A stretch of 61,790 bases of DNA, counting the filler, from Rhabdomonas costata (lineage: Eukaryota): assembly GCA_019059605.1 (NCBI GenBank). It is 20 parts of 20 records of this genome, joined end to end, with 100 filler letters (N's around TTAATTAATTAA, not from the genome) between each part and the next. Parts side by side here need not be neighbours in the genome. Positions count along the whole stretch, not along the records: positions 3,106 to 6,100 come from JAHMHO010001578.1; 19 more parts are not named here. One strand, 5' to 3'. The translations under genes were made by a program, and so were the position numbers. How positions within the stretch are numbered: position 1 is the first letter of the stretch; each line of letters opens with the position of its first letter. Shown piece by piece: positions 3,106 through 49,426 of this stretch. The notes under the pieces were generated by a model, which made no database searches, was not told where the DNA came from, and saw only the letters and a program-made list of their open reading frames with translations.

Positions 3106-3765
3106 GTTGGTTGTTCTAAATTGAAAAGATAATTCTGTTAAAGTTATAGGAGGATTATAAATATTGGTAACATTTTTATCAATAATTCCAAAAGGAATAT
3201 CATAATTTATATTTGTGATATAGATGTAAATATTTTTATGTGCAAGAGAGAAAGGTTCTTCAGCTGTATATGTTTTTTGTCCATAATAATGTTCTTTTTT
3301 AAATCCTAATAAACAATGAATTGTATTTTCTGTATTAATAATTTCAAAATCATCATCACAAGATATAGTTATTAATCCATCTTTTATTGTAATATCAAGA
3401 TTATCGCAAATTTCAGTAAATGCATTTCTTAAAGATGATAAAAGATCGTCAATAGTATAATATCCTTCATAAAGTTCAATAATTTTTGAATCTTTATTTT
3501 TAAATTTAATGATAAAACGATTTTCATTTTTTGTGACATTATGAGGACAATTCGGAAATTTAAAATTATGTAATTTGATGACATTAACATTTTCATATGG
3601 TTTTTTTAGAGTAACAGAATAATTATTATAACTATCTGATTTAGCATGTTCTGATGAATCAATATGTATTGTAAGAAAATTTTGTATTTGTTCCATTTGT
3701 TTAGGAACTTTAAACTGATTTATAATATCATAAAGTTCTTTTTTTGTTGCATTAATTGAAGTCAA
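3106..3765 (-). CDS. C-terminal penton/minor-capsid-like domain of a viral protein (3' truncated; probably frameshifted continuation of the upstream ORF)
   Basis: IHIDSSEH...YSVTLKKPYENVNVIKLHNFKFP...NVTKNENRF...IELYEGYYTIDDLL...LLGF...YNPPITLTELSFQF. The ORF begins at TTG, not ATG. Confidence 0.7.
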
Positions 3766-5123
3766 CGCACTATCAAGAGTTTTTTATCAACAATTTGTGT
3801 ATTTAAAGAATTTTTACTAATTTTATATTGCAAATGTTCCATCAAATCATTAATAATTTGTTTTATTTGAGAAGATGAGAAATTATTCATAATATTTGAG
3901 TATTTATTGTCTAACGAATGATCGCAGTTTATAGAATCGAAATTAGATTCTTTATAAATAGGTTTATCGTTATTATTTGATTTATGTTTTATATTTGGAG
4001 TATTATTAATATTTTTAAATAATAAATCAAGTTCATCATTTGATATTTTTTTGTTTGAAATTGAATTATTTTCAACCATTTGAGAATATACTTTATTAAG
4101 TGTATCACTTGGGATATTAGATGAATAATTTTTTTTATTTATGTTATCTAATTTAGGACGTTGTGAATTTAAATTATTATATAAATCATTATTTGTATCA
4201 ATAGTTATATTTTCAGTTGTGATTTCATCTTTAAAAACAGAAGGTGAAATCATAGGATCGAAATTAACTTTTTTAGTTTGTTTAGTAGCATAATCCATAT
4301 TTTTACGTTCTTCAACAAGTTTATTTAATTTTGCAGTAAATGGCATATTATCATTAATAACTTCTTTTTGAACATTGCTTATATTTTCAAAACATGCATC
4401 AAAATCAGTTCCTATATTATCATTACTTAATGGACAAGTTAAACCAGTAATAACATCATCATTAGTATTTAAATCATTCATAGCACTAGTAGTTAAATTA
4501 GGTGAATTAATAGATGCTTGTTTAAATCCTCGTGTATAATCTCTTTCTGAAGCTAATTTAAACATTTTTTCTTCAAGATCATCACGTTTATTATCACAAA
4601 ATTGTGATGATTGAATGGTTGAGATATCTTGTTCAATACCAAGGGCAGAAATATATTTTTTTTGATTTTTGAAATCAGTAGACAATTCATTATGACGACT
4701 ATATAAATTACGTACATCTTGATTATCTGAATTTTTATTTAAAGAAGGAAAATCAGGTCTATCATCAATAGTACATTTAGCAGATGTACCATAAACTTCT
4801 TGATCACGTAAACGTTTCCATTCATCAATGGTAGATTTATGACATTTTTCATTATAATTTTTTTTATGAATTTTATCTTTATACAAACGAATACAAGTAA
4901 TTAAACTTTTTTTATTTAATAACTCAACATACTTCATAACATTCATTTTAGCAGGAGGTCTACCATAATTTTTATAAATATCGTTCATCTTATTAACCAA
5001 AAACTGTTTACATTTATATTGAGTATCAAGATCTCGTTTTATATTTAGATATAAATTTAACTTATCTTGAATTTTGTTAATGTTACTTTCTGAAAAAAAA
5101 ATTTTCCATATATTATAATGCAT
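3762..5123 (-). CDS. N-terminal part of a large Asn/Lys-rich giant-virus-like protein
   Basis: About 450-codon stop-free ORF in very AT-rich DNA. First in-frame ATG is at 5123; an alternative ATG at 5109 would need a 1-nt indel in a T9 run. Confidence 0.75.
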   Translation of the reverse strand: MHYNIWKIFFSESNINKIQDKLNLYLNIKRDLDTQYKCKQFLVNKMNDIYKNYGRPPAKMNVMKYVELLNKKSLITCIRLYKDKIHKKNYNEKCHKSTIDEWKRLRDQEVYGTSAKCTIDDRPDFPSLNKNSDNQDVRNLYSRHNELSTDFKNQKKYISALGIEQDISTIQSSQFCDNKRDDLEEKMFKLASERDYTRGFKQASINSPNLTTSAMNDLNTNDDVITGLTCPLSNDNIGTDFDACFENISNVQKEVINDNMPFTAKLNKLVEERKNMDYATKQTKKVNFDPMISPSVFKDEITTENITIDTNNDLYNNLNSQRPKLDNINKKNYSSNIPSDTLNKVYSQMVENNSISNKKISNDELDLLFKNINNTPNIKHKSNNNDKPIYKESNFDSINCDHSLDNKYSNIMNNFSSSQIKQIINDLMEHLQYKISKNSLNTQIVDKKLLIVR

Positions 5124-5284
5124 TTTATTTTTACTTTGTAAAAACACACTTGATTCATAAATATAAAAAAAATAATAAGTATCAACAAAATATTAGCATA
5201 AATGCGTTTAGAAATATAAAAAAAATAATAAATAACAAATAAACAACGCATAAATGAATTATTATTTTATTATTGTAAATATAG

Positions 5285-6100
5285 ATGAATAATTTTGACA
5301 AGATAAATGCGGCAAATCCAATGGATATGTTTAAAAGTTCTACATTTACATATCCTGATAAATCAGAAGTAATGCATGGATTATTAGATAAATGTTATGA
5401 ACCCAATCGTCCTATAATAGATCAATATGTACCAGCAAATCTAAGTGAGACATTACATAATAATTTATCAAGCAATCTTCAAAATGAGAATGTAACAGAA
5501 TATAAAGTTAATATAGATAGTAAAGATAGAGATGCGAATGTATATAATAATTCATTAAAATATACAGTTACATTTGGAGCTGTATCTGCATCATATATAA
5601 AAAGTGAAGTATGGATAGATCCAAATAAAAAGGAATTGGGAAAGAAAATGAAAAATATGTTAATAGATGGTTCAGTAGGACCATGTGTAAGCAAGACTTT
5701 TAAAAATGTAAAATTTATAAAATTTGATACTTTTATTCTCCCAAAATATACACGTATAGTATATGATACAGACGATAATGTATATAAGTTTGATCCATCA
5801 TCATCTATAATGAGAAATAAATATGTAATCATGAAAATTAAAGAATTTTCAAACACAACAACATTAGGAACAAATTCACTATTAGAAACAGGAATATTAG
5901 TATTTCCGAATAGTAACATGGGAGATTATTTTTGCAGCGTAACACCAATGTGGAGTAAAGTATATAATTTTTCACAATTAGGAAATTTAGATCGTTTTAG
6001 TATTGAATTTTATACAGAAACAGGAGAACCTTTATTAGTAAAAGTATATAATGCAGAAGGGAAAGAAGAGAAATTAGATATAAATAAGGCAAAAACACAC
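5285..6100 (+). CDS. Giant-virus-like protein with IDSxDRD penton-like domain (3' truncated)
   Basis: ATG after AT-rich ...aatatag; LHNNL...EYKVNIDSKDRD..VY...YTVTFG...KTFKNVKFIKFDTFILP...QLGNLDRFSIEFYTETGEPL. Confidence 0.8.
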
Positions 6101-6845
6101 NNNNNNNNNNNNNNNNNNNNNNNNNNNNNNNNNNNNNNNNNNNNTTAATTAATTAANNNNNNNNNNNNNNNNNNNNNNNNNNNNNNNNNNNNNNNNNNNN
6201 TGTTGTGGGTCCTGTTGCGACGACACAAGCGAGTTTTCTAAAGAAACGAAAGTGGAAATTGTACCAACCGATTCTATGGACGGGCTTCTCCTTCTTCTTT
6301 TTGAAAACTCGCTTGTGTCGTCGCAACAGGACCCATAAACTTTGCGAGCTTTGGGATAAACCATGTACACAAAAGGGTCTCTATTTCCACTTCCAAAAGT
6401 GTACCGTAAAGGAGAAAAACACAAAAAACTGTTACTGCTTATCTTCTTATCTTTAGGTAAACTTGACGACGAAGGCGAAGACAAAGCAAAGCAAAGTCCC
6501 AAGGCCAGTTCAACAGTTCTACGGTAAAGAGAAAGCAGCAACGTGTGACACGCTCTGCGATCACCTCTTTTATTCCGTTTTATTCCGTTTTCGCAAATGC
6601 CGTCTATTTGCCTTAAACAATATAATATCCCTCCAGGGGGAACGTTGGAGCTCCCCGCGGCCCCCGGAAAAAAATGTTGGGGCCACTGGTGGCGGCGGCG
6701 CGGGGGGACCCCCCCGAAATGCTGAAGACCACCAGTGCACCGATTTTTACTTGCACTTCCCTCTACGTCAGAAGAAAAAGCCTTCACAATACACCCCTCT
6801 CGTACAAAAGCAACATAAAAAGCAAAAAAAAATACCAGAAGTCAC

Positions 6846-44961: not shown

Positions 44962-45121
44962 GTTTTTTACCTTCCCTTCCCTTCTTTGTTTGCCCTAACT
45001 TTTTTATCCTTTGCTTTGGGAGGTGAAGAGGGGAACCTGTCGCTGTTGCCCCTTCTCTCAGGTCGTTTTTTCGTAACCTCACACTTTATTTTCTTTTCCT
45101 GTTTTTTATCCGCAGCTACGA

Positions 45122-46340
45122 ATGGAAAAGCTGCTCCAACGGGTCTCAGCAGTTGACCCTTCCCTAAGACGAGTCCTGTTTTGGTCACTGTTTCCCACCC
45201 TTTTGACCATATTGTTCACCACCACCGCGGAAACCGCCCTCCCGCTTTCCCTTGCTGTTGCTGCGAATGTTGTTGTGGGTGGGCTATGCCTGTCCGCGGT
45301 GTGGCTGCAGTGGGCCGGCTGCCGGACATTTGCTGACCTGCTGGCGACTTCAGCCCACCTGGTGTGCCTGAGTATGTACGGGGTCACCCGCCGAAACTAT
45401 GGCCTTCAGACGTATCCTTGTCTACCCGCAGCTCTGCATTTATTGCACCGCTCCACGGTCTCCTCGATGCCCATTCAGCTCTGCGCGATAGTGGGCTGGG
45501 TTGTGGTTCCCTCTGTGTGCCTTTCCAGCGAATTTTTCGCTCCGGTGCCCATTGCGATCACCGTGTTCTCAGTCATTATCCCCATCGCTTCGGGGAGCTG
45601 GACTGGCTGGGCATGGGCGGGGACTCCCAATCCGCAGCCTGAGCTGGGCTGCTGCCCCTCCCTGGACATGCAGGCGAGCCATTCCCAGACAAGCCGGCTG
45701 TTTTGCAATGGGTATCCCTCCGCCATAGGGCTTTCCACGGCTCTTCCCGTCGGTACTCATCCCTCTGCGAGCGGATGTCTTGCAGGTTCCTCGGAGATTG
45801 CAATCAGTATACTGGAGGTAGCCAAGCTTCCCATGCGATCCGCAGTCGATAAGGAGTGTGCTCCTCCTGGTGAGCTACCGGTGTCCTCGGGGGGTACTGG
45901 GATGTCCCTGGAGCAAATCTCACTGCAACCAGCCATGAACCATTCTGTCCAAGGAGACCCTGATGCTGCTCACAATATACAAAGGTCCTGTGTGCCGCAG
46001 AGCGGCTCCACCGGCTCCGCCTTTGGCAGCGGCTACGCTTTGGAAAGCAGCAGGGCCCCCTCCTCTACCTCCTCTGTGATGCTCTCCAGAGCCCACCACC
46101 CAGTCTCCCTCTCCTGTGACTTCTCCAAGTTCCGGATCACGACCTCTGCATCGGACTTCCGGCGGAGCAGGACCCCAGATGCAAGCGGTGGGACATCCTA
46201 CCGCCCACTTACCTTCAGCCCGTGCAGTTTCCAACCGGTTGAGGCTCTGCAAAGAACTTTCGGGGGCACCTCTCAGGCCAGCACCCCCGGGGCGGAACGC
46301 CAGTGCTTCCTGGAGGGCCAGGGCCTTTGCCCAACCACCC
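45122..46340 (+). CDS. Multi-pass membrane protein, N-terminal exon (3' truncated)
   Basis: ATG just after a polypyrimidine tract and cag. About 400 open codons with several hydrophobic helices, then a Ser/Pro-rich region. Confidence 0.65.
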
Positions 46341-46855
46341 NNNNNNNNNNNNNNNNNNNNNNNNNNNNNNNNNNNNNNNNNNNNTTAATTAATTAANNNN
46401 NNNNNNNNNNNNNNNNNNNNNNNNNNNNNNNNNNNNNNNNTGTGGTGTGTAAAGTTCCTTATATGAGGGTTTATGGAATTATGAACTTCGTGGGAAGCAG
46501 CCTCCTTAGAGTTGCTGCACGCAAAGTGATCCCACGTTGGTTGTGGGTTTGCTAAATTCCCTTCCACGGGCTACTCGAACGCAATACTTTTCTTTAATTG
46601 CTGATGATCGCCACCTCAGCGCAGCACTTCGGCATCCGAATGAGTTTACGTTCCCTCTGCGTGGATGTGTCCCCGTGCTTATCGTCGTCATCGCCAAGAG
46701 TATACTTCGCCCGAACACATATTCATATTTCCTCAATTCTTCCGCTTGCTCGTCGACTTCCACACCCGCATCCACACCACATGTCCAAGGATTCCCTAAG
46801 TGAGTTGTAACGCTCGTTCTGGGCCGATGGAACTTGGGCGACCTGGGAGGGGGCA

Positions 46856-49426
46856 GTGTACCAGGTCGCTCCCCTCGCGGCAGCTACAGCCTTGAGCCTT
46901 CATATTACAGTCGATGGTGAAACACACAAACACACCTTCATAATCGATCATCGATGTTGCCAAATATCCGCAGTCTCCGTTTTGTCCTGCCCTTTGGGTG
47001 CTTCTTCGTCTGTATCGGGATCGGTTTCCTCTAGTTTTTCGTGTTCTGTTTCATCCGTTTCCTGTTCTTCGACCTTGACACCAACAGCTACGGTGTCGGG
47101 GACGAGTTCCGCGTCGATTTCGCGGAGCGAATTTGTAACTCGTTCTGAAAGCACTTCGCGCTCTGCGTCGCAGTCAGGTAGTTTGACATTCTCAAACAGC
47201 CTTTCTGACTCTTTGACGTCTCGTTCTGTGACGCTCTCCCAGACCTTTTCGCCGAGTTTCAGCAGGAGCTTCACGTTTTCCTCGGTTTCTCGGAGCGTGA
47301 GTCTGAGCACCAGCATTACACTTTCACGTTCCATGTCACGTACTTGCAGCAGGAGGAAAAGTTTGTCTTTGTCAACTTCACTCTCTGAAAGCCAGAGTGT
47401 AAGCTCCGCGTCAATCTCCGAATCTCCTACCCTCAGCCCTTCACCAACCTTGAGCTCTTGGACACTCAGCACATCCAATTCAGAGTCGCGGTCTGTGTCT
47501 CGGTCACCATCGTTCACTCCATCAAATTCCATTTCCAGTACCGTGTCCTCTACTTCTTCTTGTTCGACGTCACCATCTGCATCTTGCTCTGTTATTGAGT
47601 CAGCTACACTTAGCACTTCTGGCAGCTCCACCCCTTCAAATACTTACTCGCCGTCACGAAGCTTTTCCTCGCCTTCTTTTACGGCATCATCCACCCGATC
47701 ACATTCCTCCCAGACGCTCACTCGTACCGTTTCTTGGTCGGGAACATCGGCGACGACTTCGCCCTCAGCTTCTCTTTCTCTTTCGCGGTCACTCTCGGAA
47801 CCCGTAACTTGGACAACCTCTGGCACGCGGTCAATGTCTTTGAGTTCTTCGGGAAGCTTTTCGCGAAGCACAGCGACCACCTCGTTGTCTTCATCTCCGA
47901 GTACTTCACCTTCCTGCACTGAATCTGAAAGTCGTAGTTTCAGCACCCGCAGTTGCACCTGCTCCATCTCCTCTTCGTTGTCGGGCTCGCCTTCTTTCTC
48001 CGCGTCCACAGCATTATCTGTGACACACTCGCCTTCTCTGTCGGCTTCACGTTCCTCGTCCTATTCCCATGTCCAAACAAGATCTTCGAGCCAAACACTG
48101 TCTCAAACTCACTCTCAGACTGTTTCTCTGTCTTCCAGCTTCATTGCCACTCTAACCGCCTCCCTTTCCTCTTCACTCTCTTCTTCGGCCTCGCACTCAA
48201 TAAGCCTGTCGTTGTCTCCCACTACTACTATCTCGATATCTCTCACAAGAACCCCCATATTATCCGCCAGCTCAAGCAAAAGTGATTCATCCACTCCGAC
48301 CGCCACTGTTTCTTCGTCAACCACACCTACATATACTATCACCCCAACGAAAACCCTGACCTTGTCAAGCTCGTTCACCGCCACCCCCACTCGCTTTCAC
48401 AGCCGTTCAGCAACTCTTTCTCAAACTCTCTCATCTTTTTCTCGAAGTGCTTCTGGAAGTCCGACGGCTTCTGAAACTTCGTCCCCTTCTTTTTCGAACT
48501 CCCCCACCTGGTTACAAAGCTCCTCACTGTCTTCATCGGGAAGCTGGTCACTGTCCCCCACCATGACCTTCTCGCAGTCCTGCTCATTTTCCTGCTCTAC
48601 GTTGTCTGCCACTCCGACGATTTCACGTTCGTCTTCCCCGTCTTCAACTGTGAGTATTTCTCGATCCGCCACTGTATCTTTTTCTTCAACACTGTCTCCC
48701 TCCTCAACCAAGTCTCCGTCGGTATCTTCCACTTTCAGTAGTTCCAGAACTGCTTCTTTTTCAAGATCCCCAACTGCTTCCTTGTCGGCCACAAAAAGCG
48801 AGACAGTTTCTCATTCGTGCTCCTCAGTCTCCACCACCTCAACATGCACAGGTTCTTCTACGCCATCCATTATATGGTCAAAATCTTCTTCCATCACAGC
48901 AACCCGAACCTTGAGTGGCAGTGCCTCGACTGTGACGAGGACTGCGTCCCAAAGCTGTTCCATGAGTTCAACTCTAACAAACAGCAACACCGCTTCCGGG
49001 ACTGACTCCTGTTCCACACTAACTACTTCGATGAGCAGCTCTGGTGCTCGCAGTTTAACCCGGACATTCACGGCAACCTGCTCGTGGTCACAGGGCGTCA
49101 CACGTACGTTGACTCCTTCCACGACTTCTTCTATTCAAACATCGAGTACAATTACCACCAGCCTGACAACCACGACTTCTAAAATGACTTCTCGGTCTCG
49201 GTCTTATACGAAGTCCATATCTCCTAGTATCTCACCGAGCCGCAGTTTGACCCTTTCTGCGTCCCCTTCCTGCTCTCCGTCTTGCTCTAGCTTTACGCAG
49301 TCCGCCACGTTTTCCCCCTTCCCTTCTCCTACACCCACGGATTCATTGAGCAAGTCCCGTTCGTTGAGTGTAACGCCTTCGTCTTTGACAACTTCTGAAA
49401 GCGCGTCATGGATTCTTACAACCAAC
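46856..49426 (+). CDS. Ser/Thr-rich mucin-like surface protein fragment
   Basis: Over 850 open codons dominated by alternating S/T-x (SxSxSxTxT) with mixed Ser codons. True start unknown; 3' truncated. Confidence 0.85.

Follow-up and report, generated by a model that had tools for sequence, protein, structure and literature searches.

What does a short, strongly AT-rich contig encode, and what is its source, when it lies among contigs of about 50% GC in the genome assembly of the protist Rhabdomonas costata (GCA_019059605.1)? The contig in question (JAHMHO010001578.1) occupies positions 3106-6100 of the stretch of 61,790 nucleotides analysed here, which is referred to as the window. An earlier note, prepared from the sequence alone, had proposed that it carries structural genes of a giant virus, and this proposal is supported by our analysis. 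The contig is very probably a genome fragment, from an undescribed Mimiviridae-like giant virus (Imitervirales), that carries a pair of penton-type genes and was amplified together with eukaryotic DNA of about 50% GC. The support comes from a protein family of 472 representative clusters, from synteny in AT-rich giant-virus contigs, and from the penton-type folds predicted for both gene products.

The window is an artificial join of 20 assembly contigs of 2984-3060 bases each, with runs of N around TTAATTAATTAA linkers between them. Throughout the window (1-61790) the contigs are apparently ordered by size, and their adjacency is no evidence of genomic linkage. The GC content of 3106-6100 is 0.233, compared with 0.47-0.54 in the other 19 contigs, and it is the sole AT-rich contig among the 20, so the sharply different composition described earlier was borne out. 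The end tails that it was said to share with the host contigs were also found, with 92% G/T in the first 12 bases and 92% A/C in the last 12. G/T reaches at least 83% at the start of 18 of the 20 contigs and A/C at least 83% at the end of 15, and interiors average 50%. Degenerate primers used for whole-genome amplification are a source of such tails. Because it has the same G/T and A/C tails, the AT-rich contig was evidently amplified together with the remaining contigs. Coding is dense, with long unbroken open reading frames (ORFs) on both strands. Moreover, when 354 ORFs of related loci were compared with the whole window by tblastn, all 44 matches fell within 3106-6100.

Two divergent genes and their predicted folds

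The ORF list of the contig has three entries (Table 1), namely ORF1 (3109-3765, minus strand, running off the contig end), ORF2 (3765-5147, minus strand, with the first base of its first ATG at 5123), and ORF3 (5285-6100, plus strand, running off the other end). The earlier count of three ORFs has to be revised to two genes. Because a single long ORF in related loci matches ORF2 at its N-terminal end and ORF1 at its C-terminal end, ORF2 and ORF1 belong to one gene, of which they are the N-terminal and the C-terminal part, respectively. Matches between the first ~140 residues of ORF2 and the N terminus of the long ORF have E <= 2e-6 in 15 loci and E 0.05 in 2 others; in loci L018 and L019 the N terminus can be aligned with ORF2 in a multiple alignment only. 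For ORF1, a match to the C-terminal part of the long ORF is present in each of the 19 loci, with E values from 1e-23 to 0.009, and in all 19 relatives the long gene is one uninterrupted ORF.

In the contig, a stop at 3762-3764 closes the ORF2 frame, and 3783 is the highest position at which the ORF1 frame is open, which places the frame change within 3765-3783, overlapping a run of six T. Shifts at such a run are a common error of amplification or sequencing, and an error of this kind is a more likely cause of the frame change than decay of the gene. The contig ends remove some 25-37 residues from the long protein and some 35-60 from the short one. If complete, the long protein would have about 700 amino acids (aa) and the short protein, encoded by ORF3, about 310-330 aa.

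Three homologs of ORF3 were obtained by a word-based search, the best of them 47% identical; ORF3 homologs are 280-360 aa long. With a profile of ORF3 and the word-search homologs, 472 representative clusters were retrieved at E <= 0.001; for 132 of them E is 1e-30 or lower, and most of the clusters are of ~300 aa. Conservation is centred on the IDSKDRD motif, in which I77, D78, S79, D81, R82, and D83 are invariant in an alignment of four sequences and R82 is invariant in an alignment of 92 sequences.

An AlphaFold2 model of ORF3, based on 92 family sequences, has a mean predicted local distance difference test (pLDDT) score of 86.3. It was compared with 48,161 representative PDB chains. The best match is the P1 protein from Paramecium bursaria chlorella virus 1 (abbreviated as PBCV-1; PDB 6NCL chain a6), which has the same eight-stranded single jelly roll (Z 10.8, root-mean-square deviation (rmsd) 2.7 over 124 residues). 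It is followed by the PBCV-1 penton variant P1v1 (Z 9.6), the penton of Emiliania huxleyi virus 201 (EhV-201; Z 7.3), a Sputnik chain (Z 6.4), the mavirus penton (Z 6.1), a capsid chain of Singapore grouper iridovirus (SGIV; Z 5.7), and a fowl adenovirus chain (Z 5.2), where the SGIV, Sputnik, and fowl adenovirus chains are identified by entry title. All chains after these seven have Z 4.0 or below. P1 was likewise ranked first by Foldseek (probability 0.99, E 0.078) and was the sole match when the 92-sequence profile was compared with PDB sequences (E 0.21); the four-sequence profile gave chance-level matches only in the same comparison. The model forms a single eight-stranded jelly roll, of which the last strand is cut off, and its top seven matches are capsid vertex proteins. 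Judged by this model, ORF3 is a single-jelly-roll penton protein of the PBCV-1 P1 type.

Self-association of the short protein was also predicted. A joint fold of ORF3 residues 66-272 in four copies gave a score of 0.50 (0.51, 0.50, and 0.48 in the runs), and the best of 3 controls gave 0.00. The mark for self-association is reached by 20 of 30 proteins solved as same-chain pairs, as against 1 of 23 for which a single chain was solved. At least 73% of the contacts agree in the four-copy runs, with a partner pLDDT of at least 58. In the predicted interface, a face composed of residues 71-78, 81, 95, 133-137, and 148-151 meets a face composed of residues 176-180, 192-201, and 205-211. The predicted contacts are head-to-tail and ring-like, and the IDSKDRD motif is located within the first face.

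For the C-terminal domain of the long protein, a profile was built from ORF1 and the matching parts of 17 locus ORFs. In sequence comparison, this profile gives E 2e-5 with P1v1 and E 0.023 with the EhV ‘Penton protein’, and it aligns the ORF1 insertion to P1v1 residues 35-166. The ORF1 model (pLDDT 79.8) is most similar to the EhV-201 penton (Z 11.8) and P1v1 (Z 11.5), with a large rmsd since two domains are aligned jointly. Lower matches include the mavirus penton (Z 5.7), P1 (Z 4.9), and Sputnik (Z 4.6). The EhV-201 penton is also first in Foldseek (E 8e-4). When residues 73-177 are aligned alone, Z is 7.5 for chain 8roq_M of a fowl adenovirus capsid (rmsd 2.5, 104 residues) and 7.3 for the adenovirus-derived ADDobody. 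The model has the jelly roll with a large beta-rich insertion that characterizes the P1v1 / EhV-201 type, and the C-terminal domain of the long protein is, as modelled, a penton-type jelly roll with a crown-like insertion. A structure search for a jelly roll had been suggested as a check in the earlier note; it led to penton-type single jelly rolls for both predicted products.

The ~90 N-terminal residues of the long protein are conserved in all 18 aligned sequences and are followed by a variable low-complexity linker. With the N-terminal domain cut to 110 residues, the Pfam family P8_CR (PF19065), which covers the central region of PBCV-1 minor capsid protein P8, was the top match of the window copy (E 6.5e-4, 20.1 bits). 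It was the top match in 5 of the 18 sequences (the window copy and 4 of the 17 others), in the same register. From these sequence matches, a remote relationship of the N-terminal domain to PBCV-1 P8 is plausible, although not established. P8 is described in the available part of PMC6344570 as a helical wedge, which attaches to the pentasymmetron capsomers b-e. The linker differs in character among homologs: the one at L008:4814-7075 (minus strand) has collagen triple-helix repeats there (residues 201-249), and other homologs have asparagine-rich low-complexity sequence.

Conserved gene order and probable affiliation of the virus

Related loci were collected from IMG/VR. A scan with ORF3 alone gave no match, and a scan with the four-sequence ORF3 alignment gave 20 loci with a GC content of 0.20-0.32, three of which have GVMAG names and among which there are two near-duplicate pairs. 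In 19 of these 20 loci, one long ORF of 754-1271 aa is present on the strand opposite to the ORF3 relative and is divergent from it. A second scan, seeded with the N terminus of the long gene, revealed four further contigs, one of them of 481 kb, and the ORF3 relative is located divergently upstream in all four. With this conserved gene order, the contig has the character of an Imitervirales fragment.

The spacer between the divergent genes is 64-118 bp long in the 17 loci measured. It is longer in the contig (~160 nt) because of a 37-nt direct repeat, the copies of which (5154-5190 and 5207-5243) are 84% identical. Of 18 spacers, 14 have the pattern [AG]AAC[AT]C in one and the same orientation, usually near the middle; shuffled spacers averaged 0.6 and reached 4 at most, a contrast that is inflated because the pattern was picked after inspection. 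The pattern may be part of a shared promoter. Both genes would be expressed from the spacer. The octamer AAAATTGA, which we take to be the mimivirus early promoter motif, has 4 matches in the window, none of them in 3106-6100, and this is no more than expected by chance.

The neighbouring genes of related loci are informative with respect to the type of virus. The 75 neighbour proteins from six related loci include an APMV-type poly(A) polymerase (APMV, Acanthamoeba polyphaga mimivirus), RNase III, TFIIS, an SNF2-type helicase, an Ulp1/adenovirus-type protease, a YqaJ exonuclease, prolyl-tRNA synthetase, and collagen-repeat proteins. This gene set is of the Mimiviridae type. In addition, a neighbour gene at L012:512-3209 (minus strand) encodes an EF-Tu-like GTPase with homing-endonuclease and Hint domains, which is intein-like.

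Structural relatives of ORF3 were retrieved from BFVD, and 15 of the 15 named relatives at E <= 0.001 are giant-virus proteins; the cellular best hits that the earlier note listed among the findings that would speak against a virus were not seen. The best named matches (E 1e-16 to 1.5e-11) are from Terrestrivirus (A0A3G4ZM63, E 1e-16), Gaeavirus (A0A3G4ZZ25), Yasminevirus (A0A5K0U7K0), Hokovirus (A0A1V0SGH7), and Bodo saltans virus (A0A2H4UVP0). These five uncharacterized Klosneuvirinae proteins belong to the ORF3 family, are of the same length class, and have 20-26% identity to ORF3; three of the five viruses were checked and are classified in Klosneuvirinae, Mimiviridae, Imitervirales. The next matches are from ChoanoV1 and from Aureococcus (AaV), Pyramimonas (PoV), and Tetraselmis (TetV) viruses, followed by H240R of African swine fever virus (E 0.02). 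In a quick maximum-likelihood tree of 49 ORF3-family members, the window protein was placed in a clade of four with a Shimodaira–Hasegawa-like approximate likelihood ratio test (SH-aLRT) value of 98, apart from all 18 IMG/VR loci included. Because of this position, it represents a divergent lineage without a close sequenced relative in the collections searched. The virus is probably near Klosneuvirinae.

Possible vertex roles and competing explanations

In PBCV-1, eleven of the vertices are occupied by the P1 protein; the unique vertex has P1v1, the large insertion of which forms a crown that holds the spike (available part of PMC9617893). ORF3 and P1 have 15% identity. P1 has 167 aa, compared with ~300-350 aa in the ORF3 family, and ORF3 differs from it by an N-terminal extension of ~65 residues and by an insert of ~27 residues past the first strand pair, which is absent from some family members. 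P1v1 (8H2I chain bG) and the EhV-201 penton (8RBS/8RBT) have a beta-rich insertion at the same position of the jelly roll as ORF1, and P1v1, like the long gene, is encoded in the same genome as a short paralog. The long-gene family differs from both in that the penton domain is the C-terminal third of a protein of 750-1270 aa and is preceded by the conserved N-terminal domain and the long low-complexity linker. Furthermore, the long protein has one insertion domain, whereas P1v1 has two, and the region of the bridging helix at P1v1's C terminus lies past the contig end.

Penton paralogs recognised by fold or remote homology are encoded by mimivirids, and some of these occur in virions. ChlorV-1 has four jelly-roll penton candidates, two of which are in the virion proteome (available part of PMC13196603), and in Naegleriavirus one penton candidate, CDS 654, is annotated (available part of PMC11043551). 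No paper was found in which a gene is assigned to the special vertex of mimivirids, as far as the available parts of the sources extend, and supplementary tables may hold such assignments.

By comparison with these systems, the short protein would most likely form pentamers at the capsid's ordinary five-fold vertices, as its model and its predicted self-association suggest. The long protein would most likely be a second, specialised vertex protein. In order, a helical N-terminal domain, possibly related to P8, is followed by the low-complexity linker and by the crowned C-terminal penton jelly roll; the crowned jelly roll would sit in the shell, and the N-terminal part would reach beneath neighbouring capsomers. 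A place for the long protein at a unique or special vertex is suggested by the PBCV-1 precedent only (available part of PMC9617893). A more detailed division of labour can be envisaged, in which the long gene encodes a hitherto unassigned special-vertex protein of mimivirids, one polypeptide composed of a P8-like pentasymmetron cement domain, a flexible linker that is collagen-like in one relative, and a crowned penton domain, as the counterpart of P1v1 at the unique stargate-side vertex, the short gene encodes the eleven ordinary pentons, and the pair is co-regulated from the conserved bidirectional spacer. As a whole, this scheme is tentative, and we consider it doubtful.

Several results weigh against the interpretation of the contig as a giant-virus fragment with a pair of vertex genes. 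No hallmark gene (major capsid protein (MCP), DNA polymerase B (PolB), A32, VLTF3, or RNA polymerase (RNAP)) is present on the 3-kb contig. Pfam and PHROGs searches with the window proteins taken singly gave nothing significant, and the word-based search found no homolog of ORF2 among 7362 candidates and none of ORF1 among 75. In four related records, no match to the capsid family of nucleocytoplasmic large DNA viruses was obtained, which is uninformative, as the records are 4-7% complete and control genomes are equally silent. With respect to the N-terminal domain, all five P8_CR matches are below the 26.9-bit cut-off of the family, and a profile of the domain did not retrieve PBCV-1 P8 from the PDB sequences. 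For the vertex role, the basis is predicted folds and a single in-silico self-association. The four-copy prediction, which used its own alignment, departs from the conditions of its calibration, and since penton pentamers have been solved, its score may stem from resemblance to them and would then not count as independent evidence. The frame change of the long gene could be genuine decay. Finally, BLASTP of ORF1 against ORF3 gave a chance-level E of 0.71, and profile comparisons of the two families gave probabilities of 2.6%, 0.4%, and 0.85%.

The last of these results bears on a signature, IDS...NV..IK, that the two genes had been said to share. The IDS and NVxxIK(L/F) motifs are in fact aligned in the 0.85% comparison, and the shared signature is credible only through the predicted folds, both of which are penton-type jelly rolls. 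The sequence similarity of the two proteins is at chance level, and at this level the case for common ancestry of the two genes is not made. The argument for it is structural, in that both models find the same set of penton structures, and extends to DUF5901.

The earlier note had also drawn a link to DUF5901 (Pfam PF19254), which was a useful lead but holds only indirectly. Neither window protein has a match at E <= 1, so that both lie outside the family (gathering cut-off 26.4 bits). Among relatives, 15 of 150 members of the ORF3 family match the first ~50 positions, all below the cut-off (best 25.0 vs 26.4 bits), and these matches fall on the IDSKDRD stretch. In relatives of the C-terminal domain of the long protein, 5 of 17 match positions ~17-164, one above the cut-off (30.4 bits) and four below. 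Relatives of both window genes touch the first third of this 533-position model. A language-model atlas pointed in the same direction, to Nucleocytoviricota clusters in which a minority of members have DUF5901 and Adeno_Penton_B; recognition was below the mark, and this is a lead only. A literature search found no paper on DUF5901, nor on minor capsid protein P8.

Other explanations of the contig can be compared with its interpretation as a genome fragment of a giant virus. The viral fragment may be endogenous in the protist genome and starting to decay, the frame change being a real inactivating mutation. The long gene is indeed broken here and intact in 19 of 19 relatives, and the contig was amplified in one library with the host contigs. 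However, no amelioration is apparent at a GC content of 0.233, compared with ~0.50 for the host; ~2.8 kb of coding sequence is without stop codons apart from the one homopolymer shift. A single homopolymer frame change is weak evidence either way, and the frequency of such errors at T6 runs counts against decay. No host-virus junction is visible, as stated in the earlier note; both genes continue past the contig ends, and either end is the interior of a gene. We regard endogenous decay as unlikely.

A virophage or a Polinton-like element is a very improbable source, although such elements likewise encode jelly-roll pentons. The chain of Sputnik (3J26 chain N), mavirus 6G41, and the Polinton PX belong to the same fold class, with the same presumed role at five-fold vertices (available part of PMC4028283), and Sputnik and mavirus are among the fold matches of both ORF3 (Z 6.4 and 6.1) and ORF1 (Z 4.6 and 5.7). 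One language-model neighbour of ORF1 is a Parabasalia cluster, a lead only, with recognition below the mark. The matches to giant-virus pentons are far stronger (Z 10.8-11.8), and all relatives with known context are found in giant-virus contigs of up to 481 kb amid Mimiviridae genes. According to the available part of PMC4028283, the penton gene of virophages and Polintons typically adjoins the MCP gene. The relatives of the window genes do not have the arrangement of a penton gene beside MCP in an element of 15-40 kb: they are located in large Mimiviridae-type contigs without an adjacent MCP, and the scan of 75 neighbour proteins detected no capsid family; the window contig is too short for this arrangement to be tested. 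The likeness to virophage and Polinton pentons that had been noted from the sequence extends to the penton jelly-roll fold, and an origin from these elements is less likely than one from a giant virus.

An AT-rich cellular contaminant (ciliate, amoeba, bacterium, or organelle) has low GC and the lack of Pfam matches in its favour and nothing else, and it can be rejected as next to impossible in view of the exclusively giant-virus named relatives, the synteny in giant-virus contigs, and an Rfam scan of the whole window that found no family, including no tRNA or rRNA.

As a genome fragment of a giant virus, the contig links a protist sample with a divergent mimivirus-like virus that is undescribed, its closest known protein being 47% identical. 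It would be a host-virus lead if the rest of the assembly confirms the association; the virus may have been infecting the protist, may have been ingested by it, or may be integrated in its genome. In Mimiviridae-type genomes, the short and long penton-fold genes form a conserved divergent pair in a block with transcription genes and a capsid protease, and the pair provides concrete candidates for the ordinary and special vertex proteins of mimivirus-like viruses. The find is of an ordinary kind and will not surprise a specialist; its use lies in the host-virus lead and in directing attention to a conserved pair of penton paralogs.

Feature coordinates and further observations

Table 1. Features of the AT-rich contig, in positions of the window
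Feature	Position	Strand	Remarks
AT-rich contig	3106..6100		One assembly contig, 2995 bases, N/TTAATTAATTAA linkers at either side
C-terminal penton-type domain of the long gene (ORF1), predicted	3109..3783	-	Last ~25-37 aa beyond contig end
Crown-like insertion in the predicted jelly roll, ORF1 residues 73-177	3235..3549	-	Holds NxxxNxNxF...I.L..G.Y.I.DL pattern
Frame-change zone of the long gene	3765..3785	-	T6 run (A6 on coding strand) at 3780-3785
N-terminal part of the long gene (ORF2)	3765..5123	-	Stop in ORF2 frame at 3762-3764
N-terminal conserved domain, long-protein residues 7-79	4887..5105	-	Weak likeness to PBCV-1 P8 central region
Divergent intergenic spacer	5124..5284		~160 nt; AAACAC at 5142-5147; 37-nt direct repeat
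ORF3, short protein, predicted penton type	5285..6100	+	272 aa present; C-terminal 35-60 aa including last strand beyond contig end
ORF3 predicted jelly-roll core, residues 68-252	5486..6040	+	Range aligned to PBCV-1 P1, P1v1, EhV-201, Sputnik, and mavirus pentons
IDSKDRD motif, ORF3 residues 77-83	5513..5533	+	Most conserved stretch of ORF3 family

In the contigs of about 50% GC, the two longest ORFs (46811-49426, 872 aa; 45077-46339, 421 aa) have no Pfam family at E <= 0.001 and thus offer no simple taxonomic clue to the host. In the first contig, a (CA)n microsatellite (2966-2994) is located at the end, immediately ahead of the C-rich tail. The start of the contig that follows the AT-rich one in the window has a 40-nt inverted repeat (6203-6242 and 6299-6338) with 95% complementarity and 56 nt between the arms. 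The region 6203-6338 could be an amplification chimera or a genuine hairpin.

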